Below, in pieces: positions 1,076 to 64,000 of a stretch of 64,000 bases of DNA. Both the position numbers and the translations under genes were made by a program. Position 1 is the first letter of the stretch. Each line of letters starts with the position of its first letter. Below the pieces are notes generated by a model. The model was not told where the DNA came from and did no database searches. It saw only the letters and a list, made by a program, of their open reading frames with translations. This DNA comes from Christensenellales bacterium (lineage in GTDB: Bacteria > Bacillota > Clostridia > Christensenellales > UBA1242): the NCBI GenBank assembly GCA_051883495.1, contig JBJETV010000006.1, positions 2,160 to 66,159 of the forward strand, in the 5' to 3' direction.

Positions 1076-2256
1076 AAAGACTTGTTACCACTCGTCAACT
1101 ATCGTTGATTCTTATCATAAGCCTTATTACTCTCAAAGGTTTGCTTCTCCCACCAATTATGGCAAAAGACTTGGGTAGGGATAGTTATATTTTTGCATTT
1201 GTCCTTTTGTTTCTCGATTTTTTAGTATTGTTAAGTTTTTTATTTGTTATGAACAAATACCCAGGGCAATCATTTTTTCAAATATTGCAACAACTCTTTG
1301 GGGTGGTGATTGCAAAGATTATTATGTTCTTTTTCTTTTGCTTTTTCTTTGTAAAATGTTGCATAATTTTTCAGGCAAATTTTGTCTATCTAAATGAAAA
1401 TTTATACACCACTTTCAACTGGCTAATATTTGCAGTGCCTATTCTTTTTACGGTGGTGGCTTGCGCTATGCGTGGGGTAACAGCATTTGCAAGACTGGTG
1501 GAGTTTTTCTTTCCAGTGATTATCGTTGGGGTGTTCACTTCTATGGGGGCGGGTGTTTTGTCTGCCGATTTTTCCAATCTACTACCTTTTATGGAGTTTG
1601 GGTTAAGCAAATTGCCCAAAGTTTTTTCGTATGCGCTGTGGTTTGGCGATTATCTCATTATGATTGTATTCTTTGGCAATGTAAAAACCACTAAAAAGTT
1701 TAACCTGCGTATAATCTTGTCTATTTCTGGAGCAATACTAGGTGTGGTTGCATTTATTGCCATATTTTATAGCATACACAACTACAGCGCCATTTGCCAC
1801 ACCAATGCAATATCAGATATGCTCCAAACTATGCCACTGTCTTCTGACGTGGGGAGTTTTGACTGGATACTAATTATCCTTTGGGATATTTCGTTATTTT
1901 TGTTCTTTACTATGAATATTTTGGGTGCATTTTATTCTTTTAGAATGGCATTTTTTGACCAATTCCACATCCCAGTGGCAATAGGGATAGTGGTGCTTGT
2001 TTATGTTGCAAACAGAATAGTAAACTTTGATATATACTTTACTATCGAAGTAGCCCAAAAGTATATTTGGCAAGTGTGTTTATTTGTCCAATATTTCTTG
2101 CCTGCAATAATATTTTTGTTTGCCTTGTTCAAAAAACACAAACAGAATAACAAGACAGCAGGTCAACCTGCCACAGTGCAAAATATGGTAGCAGAAAGAG
2201 AACGGATAAGCCTAACTCGTGATGGGGTTTTGGATAAAGGGGGACAAGCAGAATGA
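1072..2256 (+). CDS. Spore germination protein B subunit (GerAB-type, APC-like permease)
   Basis: 394 aa and highly hydrophobic, with about 10 predicted helices. ATGA overlap with the A subunit; its position in the operon fits a B subunit. Confidence 0.85.
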   Translation: MKRLVTTRQLSLILIISLITLKGLLLPPIMAKDLGRDSYIFAFVLLFLDFLVLLSFLFVMNKYPGQSFFQILQQLFGVVIAKIIMFFFFCFFFVKCCIIFQANFVYLNENLYTTFNWLIFAVPILFTVVACAMRGVTAFARLVEFFFPVIIVGVFTSMGAGVLSADFSNLLPFMEFGLSKLPKVFSYALWFGDYLIMIVFFGNVKTTKKFNLRIILSISGAILGVVAFIAIFYSIHNYSAICHTNAISDMLQTMPLSSDVGSFDWILIILWDISLFLFFTMNILGAFYSFRMAFFDQFHIPVAIGIVVLVYVANRIVNFDIYFTIEVAQKYIWQVCLFVQYFLPAIIFLFALFKKHKQNNKTAGQPATVQNMVAERERISLTRDGVLDKGGQAE

Positions 2257-3569
2257 AATATCTTTGGAAAAATAAAATTCTGATTGCTCTATTATTGCTA
2301 CTTGTAATACTTTTCCCCTCAACAATCAGCACTCCGCAACAGAGCAGAACAGAAAATATAGTTACCGCAGTGGGAATAGACAAAATTGGAGATGAATACG
2401 AAGTGTCTATACAATATGTTATCCCTTATGCCGACTCCGCCGAGGGCACATTTAAGATGTCATCTGCCAAGGGCAAAACAGTGGGCGAGGCGGTGGAAAC
2501 ACTTAGCGTTCAGACGGGGCGACTTTCGGGCTTTGCTCATTGTAGGGCATTATTGTTCAATCAAGAAGCCAGCGAAGATGATATGACATCAATATTAGAC
2601 TACTTTATCCGCATAAAACCAAACACCAACAACATAGTCCTTCTTTACACCAAGAAGTCTAGCAAAGATACTCTTTCTGCAGTGAAAAATTTTAATGGAG
2701 AATTTTACACTATACTCAATGCCAATGGTTTGTCAAACGACCAAAGGAGATATCAAGAGTTCAAAAATATAGGGGATTATTACAATGCCTTTTTTTCGCC
2801 ATCCAAGTGTATAGGAATTAGTGTGATTGACGTAATGGACAACTCCAGCCAGCAGGGCAGTCAGAGTTCTGGTGGAAGTAGCGGTTCAAGTGGTGGTTCA
2901 AGTGATGGTGGCGGGAGTAGCAGTGGCTCTGGGCAAAGTTCCAATGCCTCGTCCAGCAACACCTCGTCCAGCAACGATATGTCCTCAGGCAGTTCTGGTG
3001 GGGAGAGTGGTGGCGGAGAGAAAAAAGTCTTTAATGCAGGCGAAAAACTTATCCTAAAAGATGCCAAAAAGGTCGCACTGCTAGACAAAGAGCAATCGTC
3101 CAACCTTTCATTTTTCAATCCAAAAATAATGGATATGAGTTATTCACTGGAGCATTTTAGCGACGAATTGTGCAAAGATGTGTCCATAATTTTTGACATT
3201 CACGACAAAGGTTGCAAAGTTATCCCATCATTTGTAAATGGAGTTCCACATTACACCCTAGACCTCACCCTTAATATGCGAACAACCGAATTGTCAGGTG
3301 GCAATGTGGGAGAAGATATGTATTATGTCCTCAACAAAAAGTTTAGCGACACCCTAAAACAAACCCTAAAGGACAGCGTAACCAACAACCTTCGTCAAGC
3401 AGAACAACATTTTAAGCAATACAAATATGACGTGATAAAATGCTACGAAACATTTTATAAATTCAAAAACAAAGAGTTCAAACAATATCTTTCAACCTTG
3501 CCAGAGGGCAAATATTTTATGGAAGATATTTCGTTTGACTATAAAGTTACAATAATCCAGCAACTGTGA
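2253..3569 (+). CDS. Ger(x)C-family germination protein (C subunit), atypical
   Basis: N-terminal hydrophobic segment followed by the GerxC-like TAVGIDK motif. ATGA overlap with the B subunit. There is no lipobox Cys, and a Ser/Gly-rich insertion sits at nt 2841-3026. Confidence 0.8.
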   Translation: MKYLWKNKILIALLLLLVILFPSTISTPQQSRTENIVTAVGIDKIGDEYEVSIQYVIPYADSAEGTFKMSSAKGKTVGEAVETLSVQTGRLSGFAHCRALLFNQEASEDDMTSILDYFIRIKPNTNNIVLLYTKKSSKDTLSAVKNFNGEFYTILNANGLSNDQRRYQEFKNIGDYYNAFFSPSKCIGISVIDVMDNSSQQGSQSSGGSSGSSGGSSDGGGSSSGSGQSSNASSSNTSSSNDMSSGSSGGESGGGEKKVFNAGEKLILKDAKKVALLDKEQSSNLSFFNPKIMDMSYSLEHFSDELCKDVSIIFDIHDKGCKVIPSFVNGVPHYTLDLTLNMRTTELSGGNVGEDMYYVLNKKFSDTLKQTLKDSVTNNLRQAEQHFKQYKYDVIKCYETFYKFKNKEFKQYLSTLPEGKYFMEDISFDYKVTIIQQL

Positions 3570-7293: not shown

Positions 7294-7311
7294 AAGCATA
7301 GGGGAATGATT

Positions 7312-7935
7312 ATGAAAAAAGAAAATAGCAAAGAACAACAATATGGTGATATTATTTACAACCACGACCTAAAAAAGCACACTATTATGGTGGCTGGCTT
7401 TCCTGCAATGATTACAAGTTATGTTGCAGGTGGGAAAACATTGTTCAAAGGTTTTTTGCCTGGATTTGAATTTGCACAAGTGGAGGGAATAGCAGACGAA
7501 TCCGAATGTGTAGAGTATCTTCAAGATATGCTAGATGACGAAGTGGAAGAATTGGTTGTTTTTGGCAAATCTTTGCCTCCTGTGGCAGAAGATGATGTGC
7601 TTTTGCGTCAGTATCCAGGCTACAAGATAGCATATTTGGATATCAACGTGTATGCAACCAACAATGATGAAGATTATTACGATTGCACACACGATTGCTC
7701 TTGTTGCAGTGGACATTGCCACGAAGCAGAATGTGATGACGACTGTGATTGTGAAGACGATTGTGATTGTGATGATGACTGCGACTGCGAAGACGACTGC
7801 GATTGTGAAGATGATTGTTGTTGTGAAGACGACTGCGACTGTGATGATGACGATGACGATGATGACGACGATGATGACGACGATGATGATGACGATGATG
7901 ATGACGATGATGATGACGATGACGATGACGACTAA
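7312..7935 (+). CDS. Acidic Cys/Asp-repeat protein with C-terminal Asp30 tail (function unknown)
   Basis: Long ORF. GGGG at 7301-7304 is spaced correctly for the ATG at 7312; the alternative ATG at 7306 is only 1 nt from it. The unknown N-terminal domain is followed by YYDCTHDCSCCSGHCHEAEC, six DDCDC(E/D) units, and 30 Asp. Confidence 0.75.
   Translation: MKKENSKEQQYGDIIYNHDLKKHTIMVAGFPAMITSYVAGGKTLFKGFLPGFEFAQVEGIADESECVEYLQDMLDDEVEELVVFGKSLPPVAEDDVLLRQYPGYKIAYLDINVYATNNDEDYYDCTHDCSCCSGHCHEAECDDDCDCEDDCDCDDDCDCEDDCDCEDDCCCEDDCDCDDDDDDDDDDDDDDDDDDDDDDDDDDDDDD
7738..7932 (+). repeat. Coding minisatellite: 6 x 18-nt (DDCDCE) units followed by a 90-nt GAT/GAC tract
   Basis: The units start at 7738, 7756, 7774, 7792, 7810 and 7828. 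Nt 7843-7932 are 30 consecutive Asp codons, including three GATGATGATGAC 12-mers. Confidence 0.95.
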
Positions 7936-17226: not shown

Positions 17227-17238
17227 ACAAATAATTTT

Positions 17239-17294
17239 CTAAATATAATTTACTAAATATAACTTACTAAATATAACTTACTAAACATAACTTT
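17239..17294. repeat. 4 x 14-bp tandem repeat (CTAAATATAACTTA)
   Basis: Units at 17239, 17253, 17267 and 17281. Units 2 and 3 are identical; units 1 and 4 differ by 1-2 nt. Confidence 0.95.
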
Positions 17295-18410: not shown

Positions 18411-18580
18411 CTTCCTAAATTTTGATTGTATTATCCACTAAATTTCGAATGTATTATCTACTAGATTTTGATTGTCTACTAAATTTAAGATATGATTTCT
18501 ACTAAATTGTAAGATTTACTTTCTATTAAAATTAAAATATATTTCTATTAAAAATAAGATAAATTTTCTACTAAATTTCA
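18411..18580. repeat. About 8 degenerate tandem units of about 22 bp (core CTACTAAATTT..AAGAT)
   Basis: Units begin near 18411, 18435, 18458, 18476, 18499, 18523, 18545 and 18568. The array fills the gap between the 327/331-aa gene and the peptidase gene. Confidence 0.8.
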
Positions 18581-19554
18581 GTTATGTCTGTAATTTTGCC
18601 ATTTTGTATAGAAAAGTGGAATATTTTAGCCGTTTTTATGCTGTTTTGGTCATAGAACAAAGCAACATCTTCTGGGGAAATGTTTTCACCAAGATTTTGA
18701 CCAAAACTGTAAAAGTCGCCAAAAAACAATTCAAGGTGAGTATCGTCCAAAATGTTAGACAAAGGTTGAGAAAGGAATGTCCTAGCAAGAGCAAGGTCTT
18801 TTACTCTTATGGCATCTACAAAGTAATAGGGAATAAGTTTTTCGTCTGAGCAAAATGATGGTTTGTCGCCTGTTTTTACCAGTTTATATTTGCCAGAAAG
18901 ATTTTTTAGCGGATATTCTCCCACTATTCCATGACCACCAGCGGTGTGAAGATTTCTAAATGTTTTGATAGTATTGTTATCCACCTCCAACAAGTCAACA
19001 TTCTCCAGCCTTTTCAATTCAAGAGAGTTGTTTGTGGTGTCAACAATGGCAATGGAATACCTCTTGCTATCGTTTTCTGCCCAAATAAAGATTGTATTTT
19101 TGCTTGCCCTTGCATCTAATGTATTGATGCCTTTTGAAAATTGAAATTGTAAGGTATCGGCACTGTTTTCAATTTTTACAAGACCTGACGAGCCTCGAGA
19201 ATAGTATATGGTGCAGTCGCCTTCTTGCAAGGACAATTTTTTTGTATGCTCTCCCAAAACAGTGTCATAAAGCAAAAATGGCTCTACTTCAAGCAGTAGG
19301 TTGTCGTGGGGATATTTTATTAGTGAGGTGTTTTCGTTTTTAGTAACCACAACCCCCTTTTCAAGATTTGCAACCAAGCAAAAGGGAATGGAGGTCTTGT
19401 TTTTGTTGTCCAACGGATAGAAGTTAATTTTTATATTGTTTTCTTCCAAATTTAGCAAAAAAGAAGTTATTTTGTTTGAAGTTAATTCAAAACTTTCATT
19501 TTTTATTTCCACCAAGGCATCAAATGTTGGTTTGATATGTAGATATTTTTGCAT
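18571..19554 (-). CDS. Hypothetical protein (327 aa; 331 aa if started at 19566)
   Basis: Long ORF with no TM segment and no motif I recognise. GGGAGA lies just upstream of the ATG at 19554; the alternative ATG at 19566 lacks an SD. Confidence 0.6.
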   Translation of the reverse strand: MQKYLHIKPTFDALVEIKNESFELTSNKITSFLLNLEENNIKINFYPLDNKNKTSIPFCLVANLEKGVVVTKNENTSLIKYPHDNLLLEVEPFLLYDTVLGEHTKKLSLQEGDCTIYYSRGSSGLVKIENSADTLQFQFSKGINTLDARASKNTIFIWAENDSKRYSIAIVDTTNNSLELKRLENVDLLEVDNNTIKTFRNLHTAGGHGIVGEYPLKNLSGKYKLVKTGDKPSFCSDEKLIPYYFVDAIRVKDLALARTFLSQPLSNILDDTHLELFFGDFYSFGQNLGENISPEDVALFYDQNSIKTAKIFHFSIQNGKITDITEI

Positions 19555-26953: not shown

Positions 26954-29506
26954 ATGAATTTGCTTGGACTCAGTGGTTCGGAAATTGTGGACTCTGTAAG
27001 AAATTTTGTCGTAAACCTTTTTGTTAGCCTTGCTCAACAATGGTTTTGGCCTGCAATTTTTGTGGGGCTAATGCTTTTGGCAGTGATTGTGATGATATCA
27101 CTTGTCAAGGGGTCTTACGAAAACAAACTTCTGAAAAGTATCAACAAACTCAACAAATACTTTTTGGCAAAGCCATTTATTACAGAGGAGAACTTGGTCG
27201 AGTTTAACCTCAAAATGAAAAAAGTGCCAAAGACACTTAGAAACTCATGGCAGATATATATGCTGAATAGGGAAGATTCTCCAACAAAGTATATCAACAC
27301 AAGTACTTGTGTGGACAAACCTCTTAGGTCTTCTTCTATCGAAAAGCACCTTGGCAACTTTGGGATATTCACAATGCTTATAGCAGTGCTTTCCTTTTCT
27401 GTGGGGCTAGCATATTCCTACAAAGCGGGTATTGCAGTAGTGGAAGAAAATTTAAGACTTCTAATTGCCGTTCTTTGCCCACTTGCTGTGGTTATAATTT
27501 ATGCAGTTTATATTCTATTTGCTAGATTGCGTAAAAACGAAATTTATTCGTTACTTTTCGAAAATTTCCCAGTGTTTGAACGCAACCTTGAAAAAGCAGT
27601 TACTACATTGCCAGCATATGTTGACTATGAGATTTTGTTTACAAAACAAGAAATCAAAGAAGGCATACCTATCCTTCAACAATATCTCGAAAAACGTGCT
27701 TTGGTCGAGCAGAAGGAACTTGAAAAGGCAAGAGAAAATTCTGTGGCTTGCGAAGAATACGATTTTGGCGACCTTGGCATAGATGGTTCTCTTGTTTTGG
27801 AAAGGGCAATGAAGGAAAGTGAAACATTTATTAAAGTTAGAAAAAGACTGCAAGACGAAAGTGATGCTATAGAGGCAGAAAAAGAAAATTATAAGAAAAA
27901 CTTTGAAACAACCAGTAAGGATTTGCAAAGAAAGTTGCAGGCATCAAGAGAAAACTTGGACAGTTTGCGTTCGCAACAAGAGGCATCGACAAACCGTATT
28001 GAAAGCAACTATATAAGAAAACAACAAAGCGACGAAATAAAGAAACAACAACAACTTGAAAAAGACCTAGAAGAAGCAACTGCAAAATTTAATAACGAGC
28101 AGGAGGCTTTGGAGGGAGAAATCAAGAAACGTGAAGCAGAAATTGAGGAGAAAAAGAATTTTGTTCAACAGGCTATGCTTCTCGAGTTTAAGCATTATGC
28201 AAATACACTTTACAAGGCTCTTACTCAAAAAGCAGCAGAGGTGGGCAACGAAAAATTGCTTTCCCTTGCACAAGAAAACAGCGACCTCAAAGCGCTACTT
28301 ACAGACTTGCAGGGTGTGGGGGGTATGACCAATGAGCAACTTGACCCAAATGCAAACCTTATACATGGAGAAGAAATAACCACTGACGAATTGTATCCTC
28401 TAAATCAAAATAATATTGAAGAGATAAGTCAGAACGAAGAAAATGCTTTGGTAGGGAATGTAGGTGGCAACTTTGCTGAACAATATTCTCAACCACAAGA
28501 AGTAAATTATTCTGAGCAACCTCAAGGAGCTGGTGTTGAACAAAATAATTTTAACACCCCAAGTCAAGCGGAAGGCTATGCCCCTATAGAGCAACAACAA
28601 TATGAACAACAACCATACGAAGCCTCTATAGAGCAACAACAATATGAACAACAACCATACGAAGCCTCTATAGAACAACAATCATACGAGCAACAGCCAT
28701 ATGAACAATCGACATGGCAAGAAGAAAACCCAACAACTGAAGGGGAACAACAACCCGAAGACCAACAATATTGGACTCAGGAAGCAGAAACAACATCTAG
28801 TGCTGAACAGCCAAAAGAACAAGAAAATATAGAGGATAGGGCTAAGGAAAATAATGTTGATGGGGCAAACTTCTTTAGAAAAGATGACGACGATGATGAC
28901 AATGACGATGGAGATGGCTCCAATGAAGCAACAGCAGATGATTTGCAACAAATTCAAAAGCAGATAGAGGAAGAAAATAATAGGCTAAAGAGAGAACGTG
29001 AGCAACTAGAACAAGAGTTGAACAACACAATATCCAAAATGGACTCTCAAGCACCTGCAGGGCAATTTAATGGATACAATGGATACAACTATCCTCAATA
29101 TCCTCAAGGTTACCCTCAAGGATATCCTCAATACCCACAGGGATTCCCACAAGGCTATCCACAGGGATACGGTCAACCATATGTTGCTCCTCAACCACAA
29201 CCTCAACCACAACAACAGCCTCAACCTATAGTTATACAAATGGCTCAGCCTACTGCTCAACCAGCACCACAAGTGGAACCTCAGCCTCCACAAAGTAATG
29301 TGCCGGAAGAGCAACCAGATGTGGAAGAAGTGGAAGAAATAGAAGAGGAGGAACCTTCAACAAGACCAGCAAGAAAGGAACGTAAACAATCTGTAAGAGG
29401 AAGAAGTTCTGCAACACGAGGCAAAAAGACTACTGCTCGCAAGAGTAATTCGGAGATTGATGCCTTGAATGCAGAAATGCAAAAACTCCTTAATTCTAAC
29501 AAATAA
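26954..29506 (+). CDS. Hypothetical 850-aa membrane-anchored coiled-coil / low-complexity protein
   Basis: SD GGAAGGTGAG. About 3 N-terminal TM helices and a roughly 250-aa coiled-coil region. This is followed by QQ(P)YE repeats, an Asp-rich patch, YPQG repeats, a Pro/Gln tract and a basic tail. Confidence 0.7.
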   Translation: MNLLGLSGSEIVDSVRNFVVNLFVSLAQQWFWPAIFVGLMLLAVIVMISLVKGSYENKLLKSINKLNKYFLAKPFITEENLVEFNLKMKKVPKTLRNSWQIYMLNREDSPTKYINTSTCVDKPLRSSSIEKHLGNFGIFTMLIAVLSFSVGLAYSYKAGIAVVEENLRLLIAVLCPLAVVIIYAVYILFARLRKNEIYSLLFENFPVFERNLEKAVTTLPAYVDYEILFTKQEIKEGIPILQQYLEKRALVEQKELEKARENSVACEEYDFGDLGIDGSLVLERAMKESETFIKVRKRLQDESDAIEAEKENYKKNFETTSKDLQRKLQASRENLDSLRSQQEASTNRIESNYIRKQQSDEIKKQQQLEKDLEEATAKFNNEQEALEGEIKKREAEIEEKKNFVQQAMLLEFKHYANTLYKALTQKAAEVGNEKLLSLAQENSDLKALLTDLQGVGGMTNEQLDPNANLIHGEEITTDELYPLNQNNIEEISQNEENALVGNVGGNFAEQYSQPQEVNYSEQPQGAGVEQNNFNTPSQAEGYAPIEQQQYEQQPYEASIEQQQYEQQPYEASIEQQSYEQQPYEQSTWQEENPTTEGEQQPEDQQYWTQEAETTSSAEQPKEQENIEDRAKENNVDGANFFRKDDDDDDNDDGDGSNEATADDLQQIQKQIEEENNRLKREREQLEQELNNTISKMDSQAPAGQFNGYNGYNYPQYPQGYPQGYPQYPQGFPQGYPQGYGQPYVAPQPQPQPQQQPQPIVIQMAQPTAQPAPQVEPQPPQSNVPEEQPDVEEVEEIEEEEPSTRPARKERKQSVRGRSSATRGKKTTARKSNSEIDALNAEMQKLLNSNK
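28586..28711 (+). repeat. 3 x 42-nt in-frame tandem repeat (IEQQQYEQQPYEAS)
   Basis: Units 28586-28627 and 28628-28669 are identical. Unit 28670-28711 is diverged. Confidence 0.95.
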
Positions 29507-33754: not shown

Positions 33755-33901
33755 GTAATAGCAATAATGTGTAGCAGAAATAGATTGTTGCGTTATAGCA
33801 ATATTATTTAGCAGAGATAAATTGCTGCGTAATAGCAATATTATGTAGCATAATCTGATTGTTGTGTAGTAGAAATATTATGCAGTAAAAATGTTTTAGG
33901 C
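33755..33901. repeat. 4 tandem degenerate 37-bp units
   Basis: Units at 33755, 33792, 33829 and 33866 (GTAATAGCAATAWTRTGTAGCA...ATTGYTGC). Unit junctions form ATTGCT-gcgtaat-AGCAAT hairpins. Confidence 0.85.
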
Positions 33902-40231: not shown

Positions 40232-40747
40232 ATGGCAAAGTTAAATGTTAAAAGAGGCGACAATGTTGTTGTTCTCACCGGAAAAGAAAATGGCAAGAAA
40301 GGCACTGTTGCAGAGTGCTTCCCAGAAGAGGGAAAAGTAACCGTAAAAGGTCTTAATATGATTGTCAAACACAACAAACCAAGGTCTGCACAAGACAAGG
40401 GTGGCATTGTGAAAAAAGAAGGCAAGATTGATAGTAGCAATGTGATGATTGTTTGCCCAGCTTGCAACAAGGCAACTCGTGTTAAGATGGAAGTGAATGC
40501 AAAGGGCGAAAAGGTAAGAGTTTGCAAAAAATGTGGCGCATCACTTGATTCTAAAAAGGTAGAACCAAAGAAAACAGAATCAAAGAAAGAAGCTACTGCA
40601 GATGCTCCTGCAAAAAAAGCAAAATCTGCAAACACTGAAGCAAAAAAGACTGCAACAGCAAAAACATCAGAAAAGAAAACAACAGCAAAAACTGCTGTGA
40701 AAAAAGAAACTAAGAAGCAAACTGCTTCTGAAAAGACAGGTAAGTAG
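40232..40747 (+). CDS. rplX: 50S ribosomal protein uL24 (Cys4 zinc-ribbon form with a Lys-rich C-terminal tail)
   Basis: KRGDNVVVLTGKENGKKG KOW motif, CPACNK...CKKCG, and a K/A/T-rich tail of about 65 aa. Confidence 0.95.
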   Translation: MAKLNVKRGDNVVVLTGKENGKKGTVAECFPEEGKVTVKGLNMIVKHNKPRSAQDKGGIVKKEGKIDSSNVMIVCPACNKATRVKMEVNAKGEKVRVCKKCGASLDSKKVEPKKTESKKEATADAPAKKAKSANTEAKKTATAKTSEKKTTAKTAVKKETKKQTASEKTGK

Positions 40748-42527: not shown

Positions 42528-42896
42528 ATGATTAGTAAAGAAAATAAAAACGCCAAGAGACAAAAACGTCATCTTAGAGTTAGAAAAAATATTTTTGGAA
42601 CAAAAGCAACTCCAAGGCTTAATGTTTACAGAAGCACATCAAATATCTATGCACAAATTATAGATGATGAAAATGGCAAAACTCTTTGCAGTGCTTCAAC
42701 TTTGTCAAAAGAAATTGCAGACAGCATCAAAGGCAAAACAAAAAGCGAACAAGCTTTTGCTGTTGGTGAACTTATCGGGAAATTGGCACTTAAAAAGAAA
42801 ATCAAAACTGTTGTGTTTGATAGAGGCGGATACCTTTATACAGGCAGAGTTTTGCAACTGGCAGAAGGTGCAAGAAAGGCAGGTTTGGAATTCTAA
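42528..42896 (+). CDS. rplR: 50S ribosomal protein uL18
   Basis: [18 protein letters not shown]...[12 protein letters not shown]. Confidence 0.96.
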
Positions 42897-43573
42897 TGGA
42901 GGAAAATATGGAAAACGAAGTTCTACAAGAAAATGCTGTTGAAGAAAAAGTTGAACAAACAGCACAAGAAGAAGTTGTTGCAAAAAAACCTGCTAAAGTG
43001 GAGAAGTCAACAGTAAAAGTTGACAATCGCCAAGAACGCAAACAAAGCAACAAGAAGTTTGACAAGAAAAAACAAGAAAAAGTTGCTCCAAAAAAGGAAG
43101 AAAGCGACTTTGACAAAAAACTTGTTGAAGTAAGACGTGTTGCAAAGGTTGTTAAGGGTGGCAGAACACTTAGATTTAGTGCATTGGTCGTTGTAGGCAA
43201 CAAGAATGGTCTTGTGGGTGTAGGTATCGGCAAGGCAAACGAAGTGCCAGAAGCAGTGGAAAAAGCAACTGCTGCTGCAAAGAAAAATTTGATTTCTGTG
43301 CCTATTGTTGGGACAACCATTCCACACAATGTTATCGGTAGATTTGGAGCATCCAAGGTTCATATGTTCCCAGCTCCACAAGGTACTGGTGTTATCGCAG
43401 GTGGAAGTGCCAGAGCAGTGGTTGAACTTGCAGGTATCAAAGATATTGTTACAAAAGCTCATGGTTCAAACAACAAAATTAACGGAGTTAAAGCCACACT
43501 TGAGGGTTTGAAACTTCTTAGAACACGTGAAGAAGTTGCCGCACTTCGTGGCAAATCACCAGAAGAAATTTAA
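42896..43573 (+). CDS. rpsE: 30S ribosomal protein uS5 with a charged N-terminal extension of about 70 aa
   Basis: Core [24 protein letters not shown]...GTGVIAGG, preceded by an E/K-rich extension. Confidence 0.95.
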
Positions 43574-55919: not shown

Positions 55920-56016
55920 TAAAATAACATATATAACGATAAATGTGTAATGTAAATGACGCACAATGCAATGGCTATATATGCAATATAAATGATGTAT
56001 AATTTTTCTAAAAACT

Positions 56017-56210
56017 ATATTAAAGTAAATATATTAAAATAAAGTATCTTAAAGTAAATATACTAGGGTAAATATATTAGAAAAAATATATTAAAAAATG
56101 TGTTAAAAAAAATATATTAGAAAAAATATATTAAAAACAATATGTTAGAGAAAATATGTTAGAAGATATATTGAAATAATATATTAGAAAATTATTGAAA
56201 TAATAATAGC
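56017..56210. repeat. About 14 degenerate tandem units of 12-15 bp (ATATATTAGAAAAA)
   Basis: Read directly from the sequence. The array lies between the stop at 55919 and the terminator at 56224. Confidence 0.85.
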
Positions 56211-56256: not shown

Positions 56257-56386
56257 TTGACACAAAATTTGCAGTTTTTTTGCCCAAAAATAGAAGTTAT
56301 TCAAGATTTTCAAAAATAAAAGTGATGCAGGATTTGTTGTAAAATATTATTTTTATTAAGGAAAAATTAACTTATTATTGTAAAAA

Positions 56387-56540
56387 ACTATTAAAGTAAA
56401 AACTATTAAAGCAAAAACATCTGTTAAAATAAAAAACTATTAAAGTAAAAAAAAATACTAAAGTAAAAAATTATTAAAGTAAAGATATTTTATTAAGATA
56501 AAGATAGTTTATTAAGTCAAAATGAAGTTTTATTATAATA
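56387..56540. repeat. About 9 degenerate tandem units of 15-20 bp (ACTATTAAAGTAAAA)
   Basis: Read directly from the sequence, upstream of the spoVT promoter region. Confidence 0.8.
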
Positions 56541-56662: not shown

Positions 56663-57148
56663 ATGGGTTGTGGAATGGTTAGAAAAGTTGATGAATTGGG
56701 CAGAGTGGTTGTGCCAAAAGAAATGAGGAGAGTACTTGGTATCAAACCGGGAAGTTCTGTAGAAATGTCCATCGACACACAAAATAATGTTGTTTTGAAA
56801 AAGTTTTCGGAAATAGAAAACCTCGAGTTTTTTGCACAAATTGTGGCTGATGTTTTGTTTGAAGTAACAGGCAACCCAGTTTGCGTTTGTGATGACGAAA
56901 AGGTTGTTGCTTGCAAGGGAATATCCAAAAAGTTGATTGATGAAAATTCGATTATGGATATTTGTGCTGTGGGCAAATTGGATAATATAGAGTATGCTAT
57001 ATACAAAAATTGCTTTTTAAGAGAAATAAAAAGCGATGGAAGTGTTTGCGGATACATAATAATGATGTCAAATAAAGAAATCGGTCAAGACGTAAAAAAA
57101 ATATGCGAGGTCGCTTCAATTATTTTTGCAAAAACCATTTCTTCGTGA
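56663..57148 (+). CDS. spoVT: Stage V sporulation protein T (AbrB-type N-terminal domain + GAF-like C-terminal domain)
   Basis: VRKVDELGRVVVPKEMRRVLGIKPGSSVEMSIDTQNNVVLKKF closely parallels B. subtilis SpoVT/AbrB. GGGG SD 8 nt before the ATG. Confidence 0.85.
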   Translation: MGCGMVRKVDELGRVVVPKEMRRVLGIKPGSSVEMSIDTQNNVVLKKFSEIENLEFFAQIVADVLFEVTGNPVCVCDDEKVVACKGISKKLIDENSIMDICAVGKLDNIEYAIYKNCFLREIKSDGSVCGYIIMMSNKEIGQDVKKICEVASIIFAKTISS

Positions 57149-60113: not shown

Positions 60114-60266
60114 ATAATGAGTAGCGAAAGTTGATAAAATGTAGAATATTTTTTCAAATGTGCTTATTTTTGTTAACAAAATAGTAGAAAATTGATACAA
60201 TAGGATAGTTTATAAAATAATGTTTGTTTTTGCGATAAAAATCAACATTAAAAGAAGAGGTTATAG

Positions 60267-61970
60267 ATGAAAAGAACAATTAAAGATTTGGAACTTGAAG
60301 GCAAAAAAGTGCTGTTGAGATTGGACCTTAATGTTCCAATAAACAGTGAAACGCATGAGATTACAGATTGCACAAGGATTATGGAAAGTTTGGGGACAAT
60401 AAATTATCTTTGCGAACATGGAGCAAGGGTAATTGTTTGCTCGCATTTAGGTAGGCCTGATGGCAAGGTTAATCCAAATTACTCGCTTGAACCAGTGGCA
60501 GAAAAACTGGGCAAACTTATCAAAAATAAGGTTTCATTTGCTCATGACACAGTGGGCAAAGAAGCAAAAAAACTGACATCTCAAATGGAAAATGGGGATG
60601 TTGTTGTGCTGGAAAACTTGAGATTTGACAAGCGAGAGGAGCAGAATGACAAGACTTTTGCAAAACAGCTTGCTAGTCTAGCGGACATATTTGTTTTTGA
60701 TGCTTTTGGCACATCTCACCGCAAGCACGCATCAACATATGGTGTTGCAAGTTACTTGCCAAGCGCAGTAGGGTTTTTGATTGGAAAGGAATTGAAGGTT
60801 ATTGGAAAGATTTTGTCCAACCCAGACAAGCCTTTTGTGGCAGTGTTGGGCGGAGCAAAGATAGAAGACAAGTTGCCTGTTATCGAAAATCTACTTCCAA
60901 AAGCAGACTATATCCTTATTGGTGGAGGTATGGCATATACTTTTGTTAAAGCAATGGGTGGTAGTGTAGGCAACTCTCTTGTGGACCTTGCAAATCTTGA
61001 ACTTGCAAAATCACTCCTTGAAAAAGCAGGGGATAAAATTGTCCTTCCAAAAGACAACATTTGCAATATCAGCATAGAAAGCACTGAAAAACCAAAAAAA
61101 TTTGCGTCAGACAAGATTCCAGACAACTATATGGGCTTGGATATTGGGCCAAAAACTGTCAGATTGTTCAAAAAATATATCAAAAAAGCAGGCACTGTAG
61201 TTTGGAACGGACCAATGGGAGTGTTTGAAAAAGAGCAATATGCCCATGGCACAAACAAAATTGCAAAGTATGTTGCAAAAACTAAAGCGTTTACCTTTGT
61301 TGGTGGTGGGGATAGTGCTGCTGCTGTTGTAAAAACGGGATATTCTAAAGAAATCAATCATCTTTCAACTGGTGGCGGAGCAAGCCTAAAACTGCTAGAA
61401 GGGGAGAAATTGCCGGGCATAGAAGCAATTCAAGATGTGGAAGAAGTAACCTCTAGCATTGAAAAAGCAACGCAAAAGACTTCTGCAAAATCAAAAACAG
61501 TTGCCAAAGGTAAAAAAACAGCAACAAAAAAAGTTTCTGCAACTAAAAAACCTGCAACAAAAAAGGTTGAAAAAGAATCAACAAAAACTGCAAAGGAAAG
61601 TTCTGAAAAGAAATCTAATAAAACTGCACAAAAGAAGTCAGTAGCAAAGAAATCAGTAGCAAAGAAGTCAGTAGCAAAGAAATCAGCAGAAGATAAGACT
61701 ATTGAGAAAGTTCCAGCAGACAAAAAGCCTGTAGCAAAGAAAAGTGTTGTGAAAAGTTTGGCAGGTGAGAAATCTGCAGAAGTGAAATCTACAGTGAAGG
61801 AAAGTCCTACAACAAAAAAAGCAAAGAGTACTAAACAGGGAGATACTGCAAACATTTCTGTAAAGAAAGAGCCAAAAAAGTCAACCGAGCAAAAGATTGC
61901 AAGAGTTGCACAAAAACCAAGAAAGCAAACAACAATGGTCAGAGGGGGCAAAAAGGCGGAGGATAAATGA
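60267..61970 (+). CDS. pgk: Phosphoglycerate kinase with a Lys-rich C-terminal extension of about 180 aa
   Basis: Core of residues 1-388 (VLLRLDLNVPI...FDAFGTSHR...GGGDSAA...STGGGASLKLLEGEKLPG). The ORF then continues in frame to 61970 with K/A/T/S-rich sequence. Confidence 0.93.
   Translation: MKRTIKDLELEGKKVLLRLDLNVPINSETHEITDCTRIMESLGTINYLCEHGARVIVCSHLGRPDGKVNPNYSLEPVAEKLGKLIKNKVSFAHDTVGKEAKKLTSQMENGDVVVLENLRFDKREEQNDKTFAKQLASLADIFVFDAFGTSHRKHASTYGVASYLPSAVGFLIGKELKVIGKILSNPDKPFVAVLGGAKIEDKLPVIENLLPKADYILIGGGMAYTFVKAMGGSVGNSLVDLANLELAKSLLEKAGDKIVLPKDNICNISIESTEKPKKFASDKIPDNYMGLDIGPKTVRLFKKYIKKAGTVVWNGPMGVFEKEQYAHGTNKIAKYVAKTKAFTFVGGGDSAAAVVKTGYSKEINHLSTGGGASLKLLEGEKLPGIEAIQDVEEVTSSIEKATQKTSAKSKTVAKGKKTATKKVSATKKPATKKVEKESTKTAKESSEKKSNKTAQKKSVAKKSVAKKSVAKKSAEDKTIEKVPADKKPVAKKSVVKSLAGEKSAEVKSTVKESPTTKKAKSTKQGDTANISVKKEPKKSTEQKIARVAQKPRKQTTMVRGGKKAEDK
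61632..61691 (+). repeat. About 4 x 15-nt in-frame tandem repeat (KKSVA)
   Basis: AAGAAGTCAGTAGCA / AAGAAATCAGTAGCA / AAGAAGTCAGTAGCA / AAGAAATCAGCAGAA. Confidence 0.95.
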
Positions 61971-63514
61971 CAGCAGTGAGCAAAATTGATGATAAGAGCC
62001 CAGTGGTTCTTATTGTAATGGACGGATTTGGAGTGCCAAAAGATGAGAGTAGAAGTGGCATATTATCAAGCAACACAAAGAATATTCAACAACTTTGTGC
62101 GCAATTTCCAAATACAACAATAAGGGCTAGCGAAGAGTTTGTTGGGCTTCCAAAGGGGCAAGCGGGGACTAGCGAAGTGGGGCATATGACCATAGGTAGT
62201 GGGAGAGTAACATATCAACCGCTGGTTAGGATAAATAGAGATATTGAGAGTGGGGCTTTTTTTGAAAATGAGCAATTTCTCAAAATGATTGACTATGCCA
62301 AGGACAATGACAAAAGCATTCATCTTATAGGTATCCCTAGTGATGGGGGGATACACTCTCATATAAGTCATCTTTTTGCATTATTAAAATTGTGCAAAAT
62401 GAAAAATGTCAAAAAGGTCTTTATTCATTTTGTGGGTGATGGGAGAGATACCCCACCAAAAAGTATAAAAAAATACATTAAACAAGTAGAAAATGTGCAA
62501 AAAGAACTGGGAGTGGGTAAAATTGCTTCTATTGTGGGCAGATTTTATGCGCTTGATAGAGATAAAAACTGGGATAGAAACAAAGTTGCTTATGAACTGT
62601 GGACAGAGGGAAAAGGGAAAAAATTTGATGATGTAAACAAGGCGATAGACAACGCATATTCGCTGGGAGAAACTGACGAATTTTTGACACCAATAACTAT
62701 CACCGAAAACGATAAACCTATTGCAACGATTGAAAAAGGTGATGTGGTTTTGTCTTATAATTTTAGGGCAGATAGAGAAAGACAACTGGCATACATTTTG
62801 GCGGAAGACAACGACTTGGATTTTGTCAAGCCACTTGATTTGTATGTTGTAACTATGACGGAGTATGACGAGCATTTCAGAAATGTTCATGTGGCATACA
62901 AAACGCAGATAAACAACAATATTTTGTCGCAAGTGATAAGCGAACACAATATTCCACAGGCAAAAATTGCCGAAACAGAAAAGTACGCGCATCTTACATT
63001 CTTCTTCAATTCTGGGAAGCAAGACTCATATCCATTGGAAGATAGATTTTTGATAGATTCTCAAAAAATGGCAAGTTATGCGAGTTGTCCAGAAATGGGC
63101 GCGCAAAAGATTACCGAAAAGGCAGTTGAAATTTTGGACAAATATAAGTTTGTTGCCATAAATTTTGCCAATTGCGATATGGTTGGCCATTCAGGCGACA
63201 AAAACGCAACAAGGATAGCAGTTGACATTGTGGATAAATGTGTGAAAAAAGTGGTGGATAGGGCATTGGAATTGGGCGGTTGCGGAATTGTAACTGCCGA
63301 CCATGGTAATGCGGATATTATGGAAGACGAAGACGGAACGCCTAATACGGCTCATTCCAAATCTGTTGTGCCACTGATTGTGTTTGGTCAGCAATACAAA
63401 GGTGTAAAGTTGAAAAGCAATATGACTCTTGCGGACATTGCACCAACCATTTTGAGTATGTTGAATTTGCCAATTCCAAAAGAAATGACAGGGCAGGTGG
63501 TTTTTGAAAAATAA
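61967..63514 (+). CDS. gpmI: 2,3-bisphosphoglycerate-independent phosphoglycerate mutase
   Basis: VLIVMDGFGV...GTSEVGHMTIGSGRV...ANCDMVGHSGD...TADHGNA. ATGA overlap with the pgk stop. Confidence 0.95.
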   Translation: MTAVSKIDDKSPVVLIVMDGFGVPKDESRSGILSSNTKNIQQLCAQFPNTTIRASEEFVGLPKGQAGTSEVGHMTIGSGRVTYQPLVRINRDIESGAFFENEQFLKMIDYAKDNDKSIHLIGIPSDGGIHSHISHLFALLKLCKMKNVKKVFIHFVGDGRDTPPKSIKKYIKQVENVQKELGVGKIASIVGRFYALDRDKNWDRNKVAYELWTEGKGKKFDDVNKAIDNAYSLGETDEFLTPITITENDKPIATIEKGDVVLSYNFRADRERQLAYILAEDNDLDFVKPLDLYVVTMTEYDEHFRNVHVAYKTQINNNILSQVISEHNIPQAKIAETEKYAHLTFFFNSGKQDSYPLEDRFLIDSQKMASYASCPEMGAQKITEKAVEILDKYKFVAINFANCDMVGHSGDKNATRIAVDIVDKCVKKVVDRALELGGCGIVTADHGNADIMEDEDGTPNTAHSKSVVPLIVFGQQYKGVKLKSNMTLADIAPTILSMLNLPIPKEMTGQVVFEK

Positions 63515-63541: not shown

Positions 63542-64000
63542 ATGAGAAAAAAATATGTTATTGCAAATTTTAAGATGAACAAAGTTGATGGCGAAATTGA
63601 TGGATATTTGTCAACACTTCTTCCACTGGTTGCTGGTGCAAATTGTGAAGTTGTTTTGGCAGTGCCAAGTGTTTCTATAAAGACCGCAGTGGAAAGAACA
63701 AAAGGTTCAAATATAATAGTTGCAGGGCAAAATCTCAACGAAAATAATTTTGGTGCATACACTGGTGAAGTAAATGCCGAAATGATTGCTGGTGTAGGAG
63801 CAGGTGCGTGTATAGTTGGACACAGTGAAAGGCGAAACCTCTTTGGCGAATCCAACGAGATTGTCAACAAAAAAGTTCTTAAAGCATTAAGAAGTGGATT
63901 AGTTTGTGTGTTGTGTATTGGCGAAACTTTGTATGACAGGAAAAATAATCTTGTAGAACAAGTTTTGCAAAGTCAAATTGCAGATTGCCTAACAGGATTG
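63542..64000 (+). CDS. tpiA: Triose-phosphate isomerase (3' end off the window; absent from the ORF track)
   Basis: SD GGAGATGGAGG. MRKKYVIANFKMNK...IVGHSERRNLFGE...CIGETL. The frame is open to the window end. Confidence 0.9.
   Translation, partial: MRKKYVIANFKMNKVDGEIDGYLSTLLPLVAGANCEVVLAVPSVSIKTAVERTKGSNIIVAGQNLNENNFGAYTGEVNAEMIAGVGAGACIVGHSERRNLFGESNEIVNKKVLKALRSGLVCVLCIGETLYDRKNNLVEQVLQSQIADCLTGL

Follow-up and report, generated by a model that had tools for sequence, protein, structure and literature searches.

Lysine-rich, disordered tails are known from bacterial proteins that handle DNA or RNA, and lysine-rich low-complexity regions of prokaryotes are enriched among DNA- and RNA-binding proteins (PMC6821194). 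The tails of Ku and TopA act on DNA (PMC3553676, PMC7398561), and in M. smegmatis the DNA binding of Ku is modulated by a lysine-rich tail with PAKKA repeats (PMC3553676). Ribosomal proteins also carry lysine-rich extensions (PMC6821194, PMC11764897); their low-complexity regions sit at the ribosome surface, and the lysine-rich ones have been read as nucleic-acid binding (PMC6821194). AlgP, which is located on polyphosphate granules via its lysine-rich tail, shows that such tails can target polyphosphate instead of DNA (PMC9239181). Phosphoglycerate kinase (Pgk) has been described with additions of other kinds. A review of the enzyme covers TIM fusions, PAS-PGK and the trypanosomatid extensions, including the C-terminal extension of PGKC, which has alternating hydrophobic and charged stretches and sends the enzyme to the glycosome (PMC7729029). 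The 511-amino-acid (aa) PGK of Mycoplasma mobile (MMOB4530) is part of the gliding twin motor (PDB 9IO5, PMC11864180), where it is held via its C-terminal domain by the N-terminal region of G1-beta (PMC11864180). Neither the review (PMC7729029) nor full-text literature searches yielded a description of a lysine-rich tail on a core glycolytic enzyme. Here we describe a pgk gene with such a tail, encoded in a 64,000-nt stretch of DNA from a Christensenellales bacterium (GCA_051883495.1, contig JBJETV010000006.1, positions 2,160 to 66,159), hereafter called the window. The tail behaves like those of the DNA- and RNA-handling proteins, on a metabolic enzyme.

The open reading frame (ORF) at 60267..61970 (+) encoded a product of 567 aa, in which a complete Pgk (residues 1–388) was followed by 179 in-frame residues. 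Judged by profile, motifs and glycolytic operon context, the protein belongs to the Pgk family, and it is the housekeeping Pgk of an uncultured Christensenellales-type Clostridia bacterium. Residues 5–380 matched profile positions 1–379 of 379 of the Pfam family PGK (PF00162) with 505.3 bits (cut-off 27). The top PDB match to the core was 1PHP (1.7e-123, residues 2–390). Alignments with 47 distinct solved Pgk sequences ended at query residues 387–392, except for two that ran further: the one with the M. mobile Pgk reached 413, and the one with a circularly permuted Pgk reached 397. The full-model match and the alignment ends bear out an earlier note on this DNA, made by a model from the sequence, which had recognised a normal full-length Pgk ending near residue 388. 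All Pgk motifs were found (TRI, SHLGRP, LENLRF, DAFGTSHRKHAST, GGAKIEDK, WNGPMGVFE, GGGDSAAAV, STGGGASL). The substrate and nucleotide motifs (basic patch R/H/R, GGAK..DK, WNGP.G, GGGDS, STGGGA) were intact, identical or conservatively replaced with respect to 1PHP, and invariant across a multiple alignment of related Pgk. In an AlphaFold2 model made from a 32-sequence alignment, the predicted local distance difference test score (pLDDT) of the core was mostly >85. The core was unusually basic (isoelectric point (pI) 9.1, net charge +9/+10).

The tail is in all likelihood real, translated and under selection. In a protein search collection of 5.8 billion sequences, the closest proteins (clusters P0001–P0012, from ENA, Logan and other sources) were 71–89% identical and 505–561 aa long, and all had a Lys-rich tail. 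The five related species-representative genomes all encoded a tail of 100–176 aa at the same place, with gpmI directly after; they are recorded as uncultured Christensenella or Clostridia metagenome-assembled genomes, one of which NCBI places in Christensenellales. Two more metagenome contigs showed the same tailed architecture, which was thus present in independent assemblies from four sources (ENA, Logan, NCBI and JGI). The comparison of Pgk lengths across the clade that the earlier note had called for found the presence of the tail conserved and its length and sequence variable. The note's own caveats, an assembly-lost stop or frameshift and absence of the tail from relatives, were removed by the independent assemblies and by the five relatives, all of them tailed. 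The surrounding gene order (SpoVT, MurJ-like, Dus, Pgk, GpmI, Tpi, SecG, RNase R) was kept in tailed and tail-less relatives alike. In a tail-less relative, pgk and gpmI were separated by a spacer of 32 nt and there was no separate Lys-rich gene. The independent tailed relatives, the synteny and this tail-less spacer excluded a frameshift or lost stop codon, the fusion of two genes and a decayed tpiA as origins of the tail.

Two specific origins of the tail were also considered and rejected. A gene fusion did not agree with the 32-nt spacer, and the unannotated ORF upstream of pgk in the same tail-less relative was not Lys-rich. A degraded tpiA was rejected since tpiA was intact downstream of gpmI. 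The protein is not a Pgk-Tpi fusion of the Thermotoga type, as the tail had no TIM match and tpiA was a separate gene; true Pgk-Tpi fusions of 650–660 aa were seen among distant representatives.

The tail contained 51 Lys (28.5%), 3 Arg and 20 Asp plus Glu (net charge +34, pI 10.3), a single Leu and no aromatic (Phe, Trp, Tyr), Cys or His residues, in agreement with the 179-residue in-frame Lys-rich extension that had first been noticed. In 20,000 base shuffles of the tail stretch, the frame never stayed open. Its Lys residues had a periodicity of five residues, which was reached by 1 of 5000 shuffles. AlphaFold2 predicted a helix at residues 391–405, over which pLDDT fell from ~80 to <50 by residue 402; it was ~29 across residues 402–567, and no folded domain was predicted beyond residue 405. 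No Pfam domain, TIM included, matched the tail above threshold, no Rfam family matched the region, and its + strand had no promoter-like or terminator-like site. On the opposite strand, a Phe-rich ORF of 173 aa (61430..61951, −) was rejected as a gene, being the mirror of the AAA/AAG-rich Lys frame.

Two tandem arrays were present in the tail. Tandem Repeats Finder placed the younger one, a fourfold 15-nt repeat recognised in the earlier note, at 61631-61686 (period 15, 3.7 copies, 92% matches), and the diverged one had a period of 15 with 3.3 copies and 73% matches. The description of the tail as histone-H1-like stood with regard to composition and not with regard to homology. The HC2 profile (PF07382) remained below its cut-off of 40, scoring 17.6 bits with the whole protein and 21.3 bits with the tail by itself. 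The winged-helix domain of linker histone H1 had no Pfam match in the protein or the tail, which thus lacked a recognisable globular domain, and the [ST]P[KR][KR] motif did not occur in the tail.

Indels between the tails of different species were many, and every one was in frame. The KKSVA array was single-copy in the nearest relative, and the alignment with L004 had a 14-residue in-frame gap opposite it. As judged from these comparisons, in-frame slippage of 15-nt (5-codon) xxxKK units during replication has produced the tail and continues to reshape it. The ratio of nonsynonymous to synonymous substitution rates (dN/dS, Nei-Gojobori method) was 0.02–0.05 for the Pgk core and 0.23–0.60 for the tail body. 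In close pairs it was 0–0.08 for a 16-codon stretch near the C-terminus, from the start of a conserved motif through M[VI]. This peptide, here termed the hook, was invariant in 6 genomes and in P0001–P0012, the sole replacement being I/V. Its codons mostly differed synonymously (GCA/GCG/GCC, AGA/AGG, CAA/CAG, AAA/AAG, CCA/CCG). Because synonymous changes were found in most codons, the hook is conserved as a peptide and not as an RNA or DNA element. A cause at the RNA level was rejected, as third codon positions varied freely and Rfam gave no match. By these sequence comparisons, selection keeps the open frame and the cationic composition loosely and the terminal peptide K[IV]ARVAQKPRK..M[VI] strictly.

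Apart from chance matches, the following searches found the hook only in Pgk tails. A regular expression for it, applied to the window and 78 loci translated in all six frames, matched only in Pgk tails. A back-translated 27-nt pattern of its 9-mer had 21 matches in JGI metagenomes, two of them genuine and both in Pgk tails of the clade; the other 19 had arisen by chance, in high-GC DNA or on the opposite strand. When the last 45 residues were used as a profile query, no match came up at E <= 10; this search was insensitive, as it did not recover the known tails either. A protein search with the tail only found no stand-alone homologue, though composition correction masks even true relatives in such a search. 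It gave two weak matches: P0138, a GroES with a 70-aa N-terminal extension of KKxVAKK repeats, and P0139, an SCP2-domain protein with a similar tail at the C-terminus. From these two extensions it follows that other housekeeping proteins in unidentified organisms also gain such tails.

Lys-rich tails were gained by Pgk repeatedly. When 107 related Pgk cores were placed in a neighbour-joining tree, such tails occurred in at least seven separate lineages interleaved with tail-less sisters (37–182 aa, 23–35% Lys), and the hook was restricted to the clade of the window. Some relatives had K/E/N-rich stubs of 16–22 aa. Among the best 150 matches of an exhaustive search of 1.84 billion cluster representatives, polycationic tails were found in at least five other clusters formed at 50% identity, namely the low-GC Mollicutes-like P0144, P0177, P0181 and P0244 and the high-GC type P0233 (Ala/Arg/Lys/Pro-rich). 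In the flanks of tailed pgk loci, gpmI, tpiA and dus had no Lys-rich region; it was on Pgk alone.

The folded core was basic throughout the group. Regardless of the tail, core pI was about 9 (P0001–P0120); in the group of 25 tailed and 90 tail-less cores, the tailed members listed had pI 8.7–9.4 and net charges of +5 to +15. For comparison, 73 Pgk cores from other phyla in a genome scan had a median pI of 5.45, with 2 above 8, and the median core pI of 147 Pgk representatives was 5.72. Basic cores were found in 4 of the 5 Lys-tailed representatives versus 25 of the 142 others (Fisher p = 0.005). GpmI (pI 5.4–8.7) and Tpi (5.8–8.4) from the same operons were below Pgk at every locus checked and mostly <7, and the non-ribosomal soluble proteins of the window were mostly acidic.

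Some related or distant Pgk proteins had unusual C-termini or architectures. The Lys-rich tails of P0060 and P0062, relatives from two lineages, started with Cys clusters (CCCCECCE; KTCEKCADKKCC), which may point to metal binding or lipidation where core and tail meet. In P0177, a module of ~60 aa with Cys and His followed the Lys-rich tail. The distant Pgk P0235 had a tail of 326 aa that was strongly acidic and His-rich instead of basic. In another lineage, P0013–P0018 and P0140 were tandem Pgk-Pgk duplications of ~798 aa in which both halves looked complete.

We compared the tail with the bacterial Lys-rich polyanion-binding tails, which are a functional kind and not a homologous family. The tail was terminal, predicted disordered, at least 25% Lys, made of short repeats and variable in length, as is typical of this kind; the host domain does not act on nucleic acid, being Pgk. 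Like the tails of mycobacterial HupB, M. smegmatis Ku and actinobacterial TopA (PMC7398561) and the N-terminal region of Streptomyces HrdB/SigA, it is terminal, disordered and repetitive with 25–35% Lys, and it shares with them the short repeat units and the variation in length between species; those tails bind polyanions electrostatically. The Lys-rich region of SigA (8DY7_F) was the sole PDB sequence that weakly matched the tail (E = 6e-4). The differences lie in the host protein, which here is a glycolytic enzyme and there already binds DNA, in the repeat type, (S/T/A/V)xxKK as opposed to PAKKA or AKKA, and in the organism, a low-GC Clostridia lineage with a non-repetitive conserved terminal hook as opposed to high-GC actinobacteria. 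Chlamydial Hc2 and Pseudomonas AlgP resemble the tail in composition and pentapeptide-type periodicity, but they are stand-alone structural proteins whereas the tail is fused to an enzyme.

With Thermotoga Pgk-Tpi, PGKC and M. mobile PGK, which are active enzymes, the protein shares a Pgk core with a C-terminal addition, but their extensions are not Lys-rich or H1-like. The M. mobile extension was rejected as a homologue of the tail because it is dissimilar and its start is not cationic. PGKC in the glycosome and M. mobile PGK at its ATPase motor nevertheless are precedents for a localised ATP-forming step, though by way of extensions or contacts that are unrelated to the tail and non-cationic. 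Within the window, a scan for Lys-rich low-complexity ORFs found two others, uL24 and uS5, as the earlier note had observed. Their extensions are terminal, of the same composition as the Pgk tail and from the same genome; they are 65–70 aa long versus 179 aa on Pgk, have no hook, and their hosts are RNA-binding by nature. In uL24 there was also a zinc-ribbon-like CxxC...CxxC insertion (CPAC...CKKC) with weak matches to several zinc-ribbon Pfam profiles.

The recurrent gain of tails, the group-wide basic core and the strictly kept hook together suggest selection to hold Pgk on a polyanion. We hypothesize that tail and hook act as an electrostatic polyanion tether with a specific contact, a reading to which we give an even chance. 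The tail would be a long flexible electrostatic tether that holds Pgk on a cellular polyanion, and the terminal hook would supply the specific contact; the folded core of the enzyme is also unusually basic across the group. The ATP-forming step of glycolysis would then be localised and not freely diffusing. By analogy, RNA or ribosomes and the nucleoid are the foremost candidate polyanions, because the other Lys-rich extensions in the window are ribosomal, because such regions are enriched among nucleic-acid-binding proteins in the literature (PMC6821194) and because of the tails of Ku and TopA. Polyphosphate, as for AlgP, and wall polymers or host ligands, as for streptococcal surface Pgk, are further candidate targets on the same kind of comparison. 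The tethering to nucleic acids, ribosomes, teichoic acids or the cell surface that the earlier note had put forward is, in its general form of binding to a polyanion, consistent with a tail under weak and a motif under strong selection, with the recurrent gain and with the basic core. If the tether is real, it would be a simple and testable example of spatially organised glycolysis in a bacterium and a natural "tether plus hook" module. If not, the locus would still be a clean case of a low-complexity tail that grows by codon slippage, in frame, between coupled genes.

A wider version of the tether, which we regard as improbable, would have Pgk turned into a polycation throughout a group of gut Clostridia at about the rank of an order and, as separate events, in some Mollicutes-like and high-GC lineages. 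Ribosomes, RNA or the nucleoid would retain the enzyme, and acylation could switch this off. Its elements would be the basic core, the repeated gain of Lys tails and the hook of this clade, with acylation of tail lysines by 1,3-bisphosphoglycerate (1,3-BPG) or acetyl-phosphate as a possible off-switch. If true, bacteria would have a form of localised glycolytic ATP production that has so far gone unrecognised.

Several observations weigh against a tether. Many close relatives, with cores 73% identical, have no tail, and because they do without one the tail is dispensable. The tail body is weakly constrained and very variable in length. In the AlphaFold2 model the hook was unstructured and not docked on the core (pLDDT ~35), and the searches for the hook and tail described above found no other hook-bearing protein family that points to a partner. 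Part of the association of basic cores with tails could stem from the Lys-rich proteomes of AT-rich lineages, and low GC with A-rich slippage is a mutational route to Lys runs without function.

This last route leads to the main rival explanation, in which the tail is a near-neutral by-product of A-rich codon slippage at the 3' end of pgk, harmless, with no specific binding role and at most a solubility aid or entropic bristle. We consider it unlikely, although it fits the variable tail body (dN/dS 0.23–0.60, lengths from 37 to 182 aa), the many tail-less sister lineages, the recent 15-nt tandem arrays in a window of ~36% GC, and the short K/E/N-rich stubs of relatives, which resemble seeds of expansion. 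It leaves unexplained why the frame is open in every relative of the clade when none of 20,000 shuffles retained it, and why strong purifying selection acts on the hook while its codons turn over synonymously. It also does not account for a recurrent gain that is specific to Pgk, for the lack of such tails on the neighbouring gpmI, tpiA, dus and others, or for a folded core that is basic too.

Moonlighting at the surface or outside the cell, with a Pgk lacking a signal peptide held on teichoic acids or a tail that binds plasminogen-like host ligands, appears quite improbable. The surface Pgk of streptococci binds plasminogen and actin via Lys-rich regions, and Spiroplasma Pgk binds actin (PMC7729029), but these known examples rely on the folded core and not on an appended tail. 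At least one related metagenome-assembled genome came from a human gut sample ('Hadza'). However, the N-terminus is that of a canonical Pgk without a signal peptide, and this pgk is the operon-borne copy, coupled to gpmI, with no link to secretion in the window.

We give a similarly small chance to a switch driven by polyphosphate or metabolites, in which the tail binds granules, or in which 1,3-BPG or acetyl-phosphate acylates its lysines, reverses the charge and frees the enzyme at high flux. The 51 lysines of the tail are tethered beside the 1,3-BPG site, and lysine 3-phosphoglycerylation by 1,3-BPG is known in eukaryotic cells. The granule variant has a parallel in AlgP, whose Lys-rich tail goes to polyphosphate granules (PMC9239181). 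The switch is nonetheless purely inferential and leaves the conserved hook unexplained.

It is very unlikely that the tail is made, in part or exclusively, as a separate small H1-like protein, from an internal start close to the junction of core and tail (for instance TTG382, or GTG391 after GGGGAG) or through release by proteolysis. A Shine-Dalgarno-like AGGGGAG (~61402-61408) lies just upstream of the in-frame TTG 61410 and GTG 61437, but this stretch merely encodes the conserved Pgk residues EGE and lies only a short distance from the TTG. The tail-only protein search gave no stand-alone homologue, and there was no promoter-like site on the + strand of the tail. An artefact, whether an assembly-lost stop or frameshift or a mis-assembled remnant of tpiA or an H1-like gene, can be dismissed, since the only prior concern was the existence of Pgk-Tpi fusions elsewhere, nothing was found in its favour, and the assemblies from four sources, the intact tpiA, the tail-less relative with its 32-nt spacer and no Lys-rich ORF, and the lack of an above-threshold Pfam match in the tail all speak against it.

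Table 1. Features of the tailed pgk locus and of other Lys-rich extensions in the window (positions are those of the window).
Feature	Position	Strand	Basis
Pgk catalytic core, residues 1–388	60267..61430	+	Pfam PGK, PDB alignments, motifs, AlphaFold2
Polycationic tail, predicted disordered, residues 389–567 (179 aa)	61431..61967	+	Composition, AlphaFold2, relatives
Acidic junction (QDVEEVTSSIEKATQKT), predicted single helix extending the last Pgk helix	61431..61481	+	AlphaFold2
Older diverged 15-nt (5-codon) array coding (T/A)TKKx units	61512..61564	+	Tandem Repeats Finder
Recent 15-nt x4 slippage array, KKSVA x3 + KKSAE	61632..61691 (codon register)	+	Tandem Repeats Finder, sequence
Conserved C-terminal hook KIARVAQKPRKQTTMV	61893..61940	+	Clade consensus K[IV]ARVAQKPRK-x3-M[VI]
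gpmI Shine-Dalgarno GGAGG (61958-61962) within the last tail codons, then ATGA overlap	61958..61970	+	Sequence
gpmI, cofactor-independent phosphoglycerate mutase	61967..63514	+	Pfam iPGM_N 3.7e-77, Metalloenzyme 8.7e-61
tpiA, 5' part, runs off the window end	63542..64000	+	Translation MRKKYVIANFKMN..., TIM in syntenic loci
Candidate pgk-gpmI-tpiA promoter, two overlapping sigma-70-like matches in the dus-pgk spacer	60173..60221	+	Consensus scan
uL24 Lys-rich C-terminal extension (gene 40232-40747)	40544..40744	+	Window scan; Pfam ribosomal_L24 at residues 41–104 only
uS5 Glu/Lys-rich N-terminal extension (gene 42896-43573)	42896..43105	+	Window scan; Pfam S5 domains from residue 72

The tail is embedded in an operon (Table 1). 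The genes followed in the order pgk-gpmI-tpiA, as in relatives, and the stop codon of pgk (TGA, 61968-61970) overlapped the start codon of gpmI (ATG, 61967-69) as ATGA, both as the earlier note had read them. The pgk/gpmI junction in relatives was either TAAATG or ATGA. On the evidence of the sequence, gpmI is translationally coupled to pgk. The two promoter matches each agreed with the consensus at 10 of 12 positions, one with an extended −10 TG, as pattern matches only.

Other low-complexity sequences were present elsewhere in the window. An ORF of 209 aa without a Pfam match (7306-7935, +) was extremely acidic, with a pI of 4.05, and in this respect the reverse of the Pgk tail; it ended in Cys/Asp/Glu repeats (CDCEDD units in an 18/36-nt tandem array) and then a run of 30 Asp. 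A second ORF without a Pfam match (26954-29506, +; 850 aa) was hydrophobic in its N-terminal part and basic at its C-terminal end; it also contained a long coiled-coil-like region of Glu, Lys and Gln, YPQG-type repeats, and three IEQQQYEQQPYEAS repeats in a 42-nt array at 28580-28705. A/T-rich tandem arrays were found in intergenic regions, two of them just upstream of a SpoVT-like gene (56010-56191, 14 nt x13; 56380-56483, 16 nt x6) and the others at 33755-33882 (37 nt x3.5), 18415-18586 (23 nt x5-8) and 17231-17293 (14 nt x4.5). This SpoVT-like gene (56663-57148) and a GerAC-type spore germination gene (2253-3569) indicate that the organism is probably a spore former.

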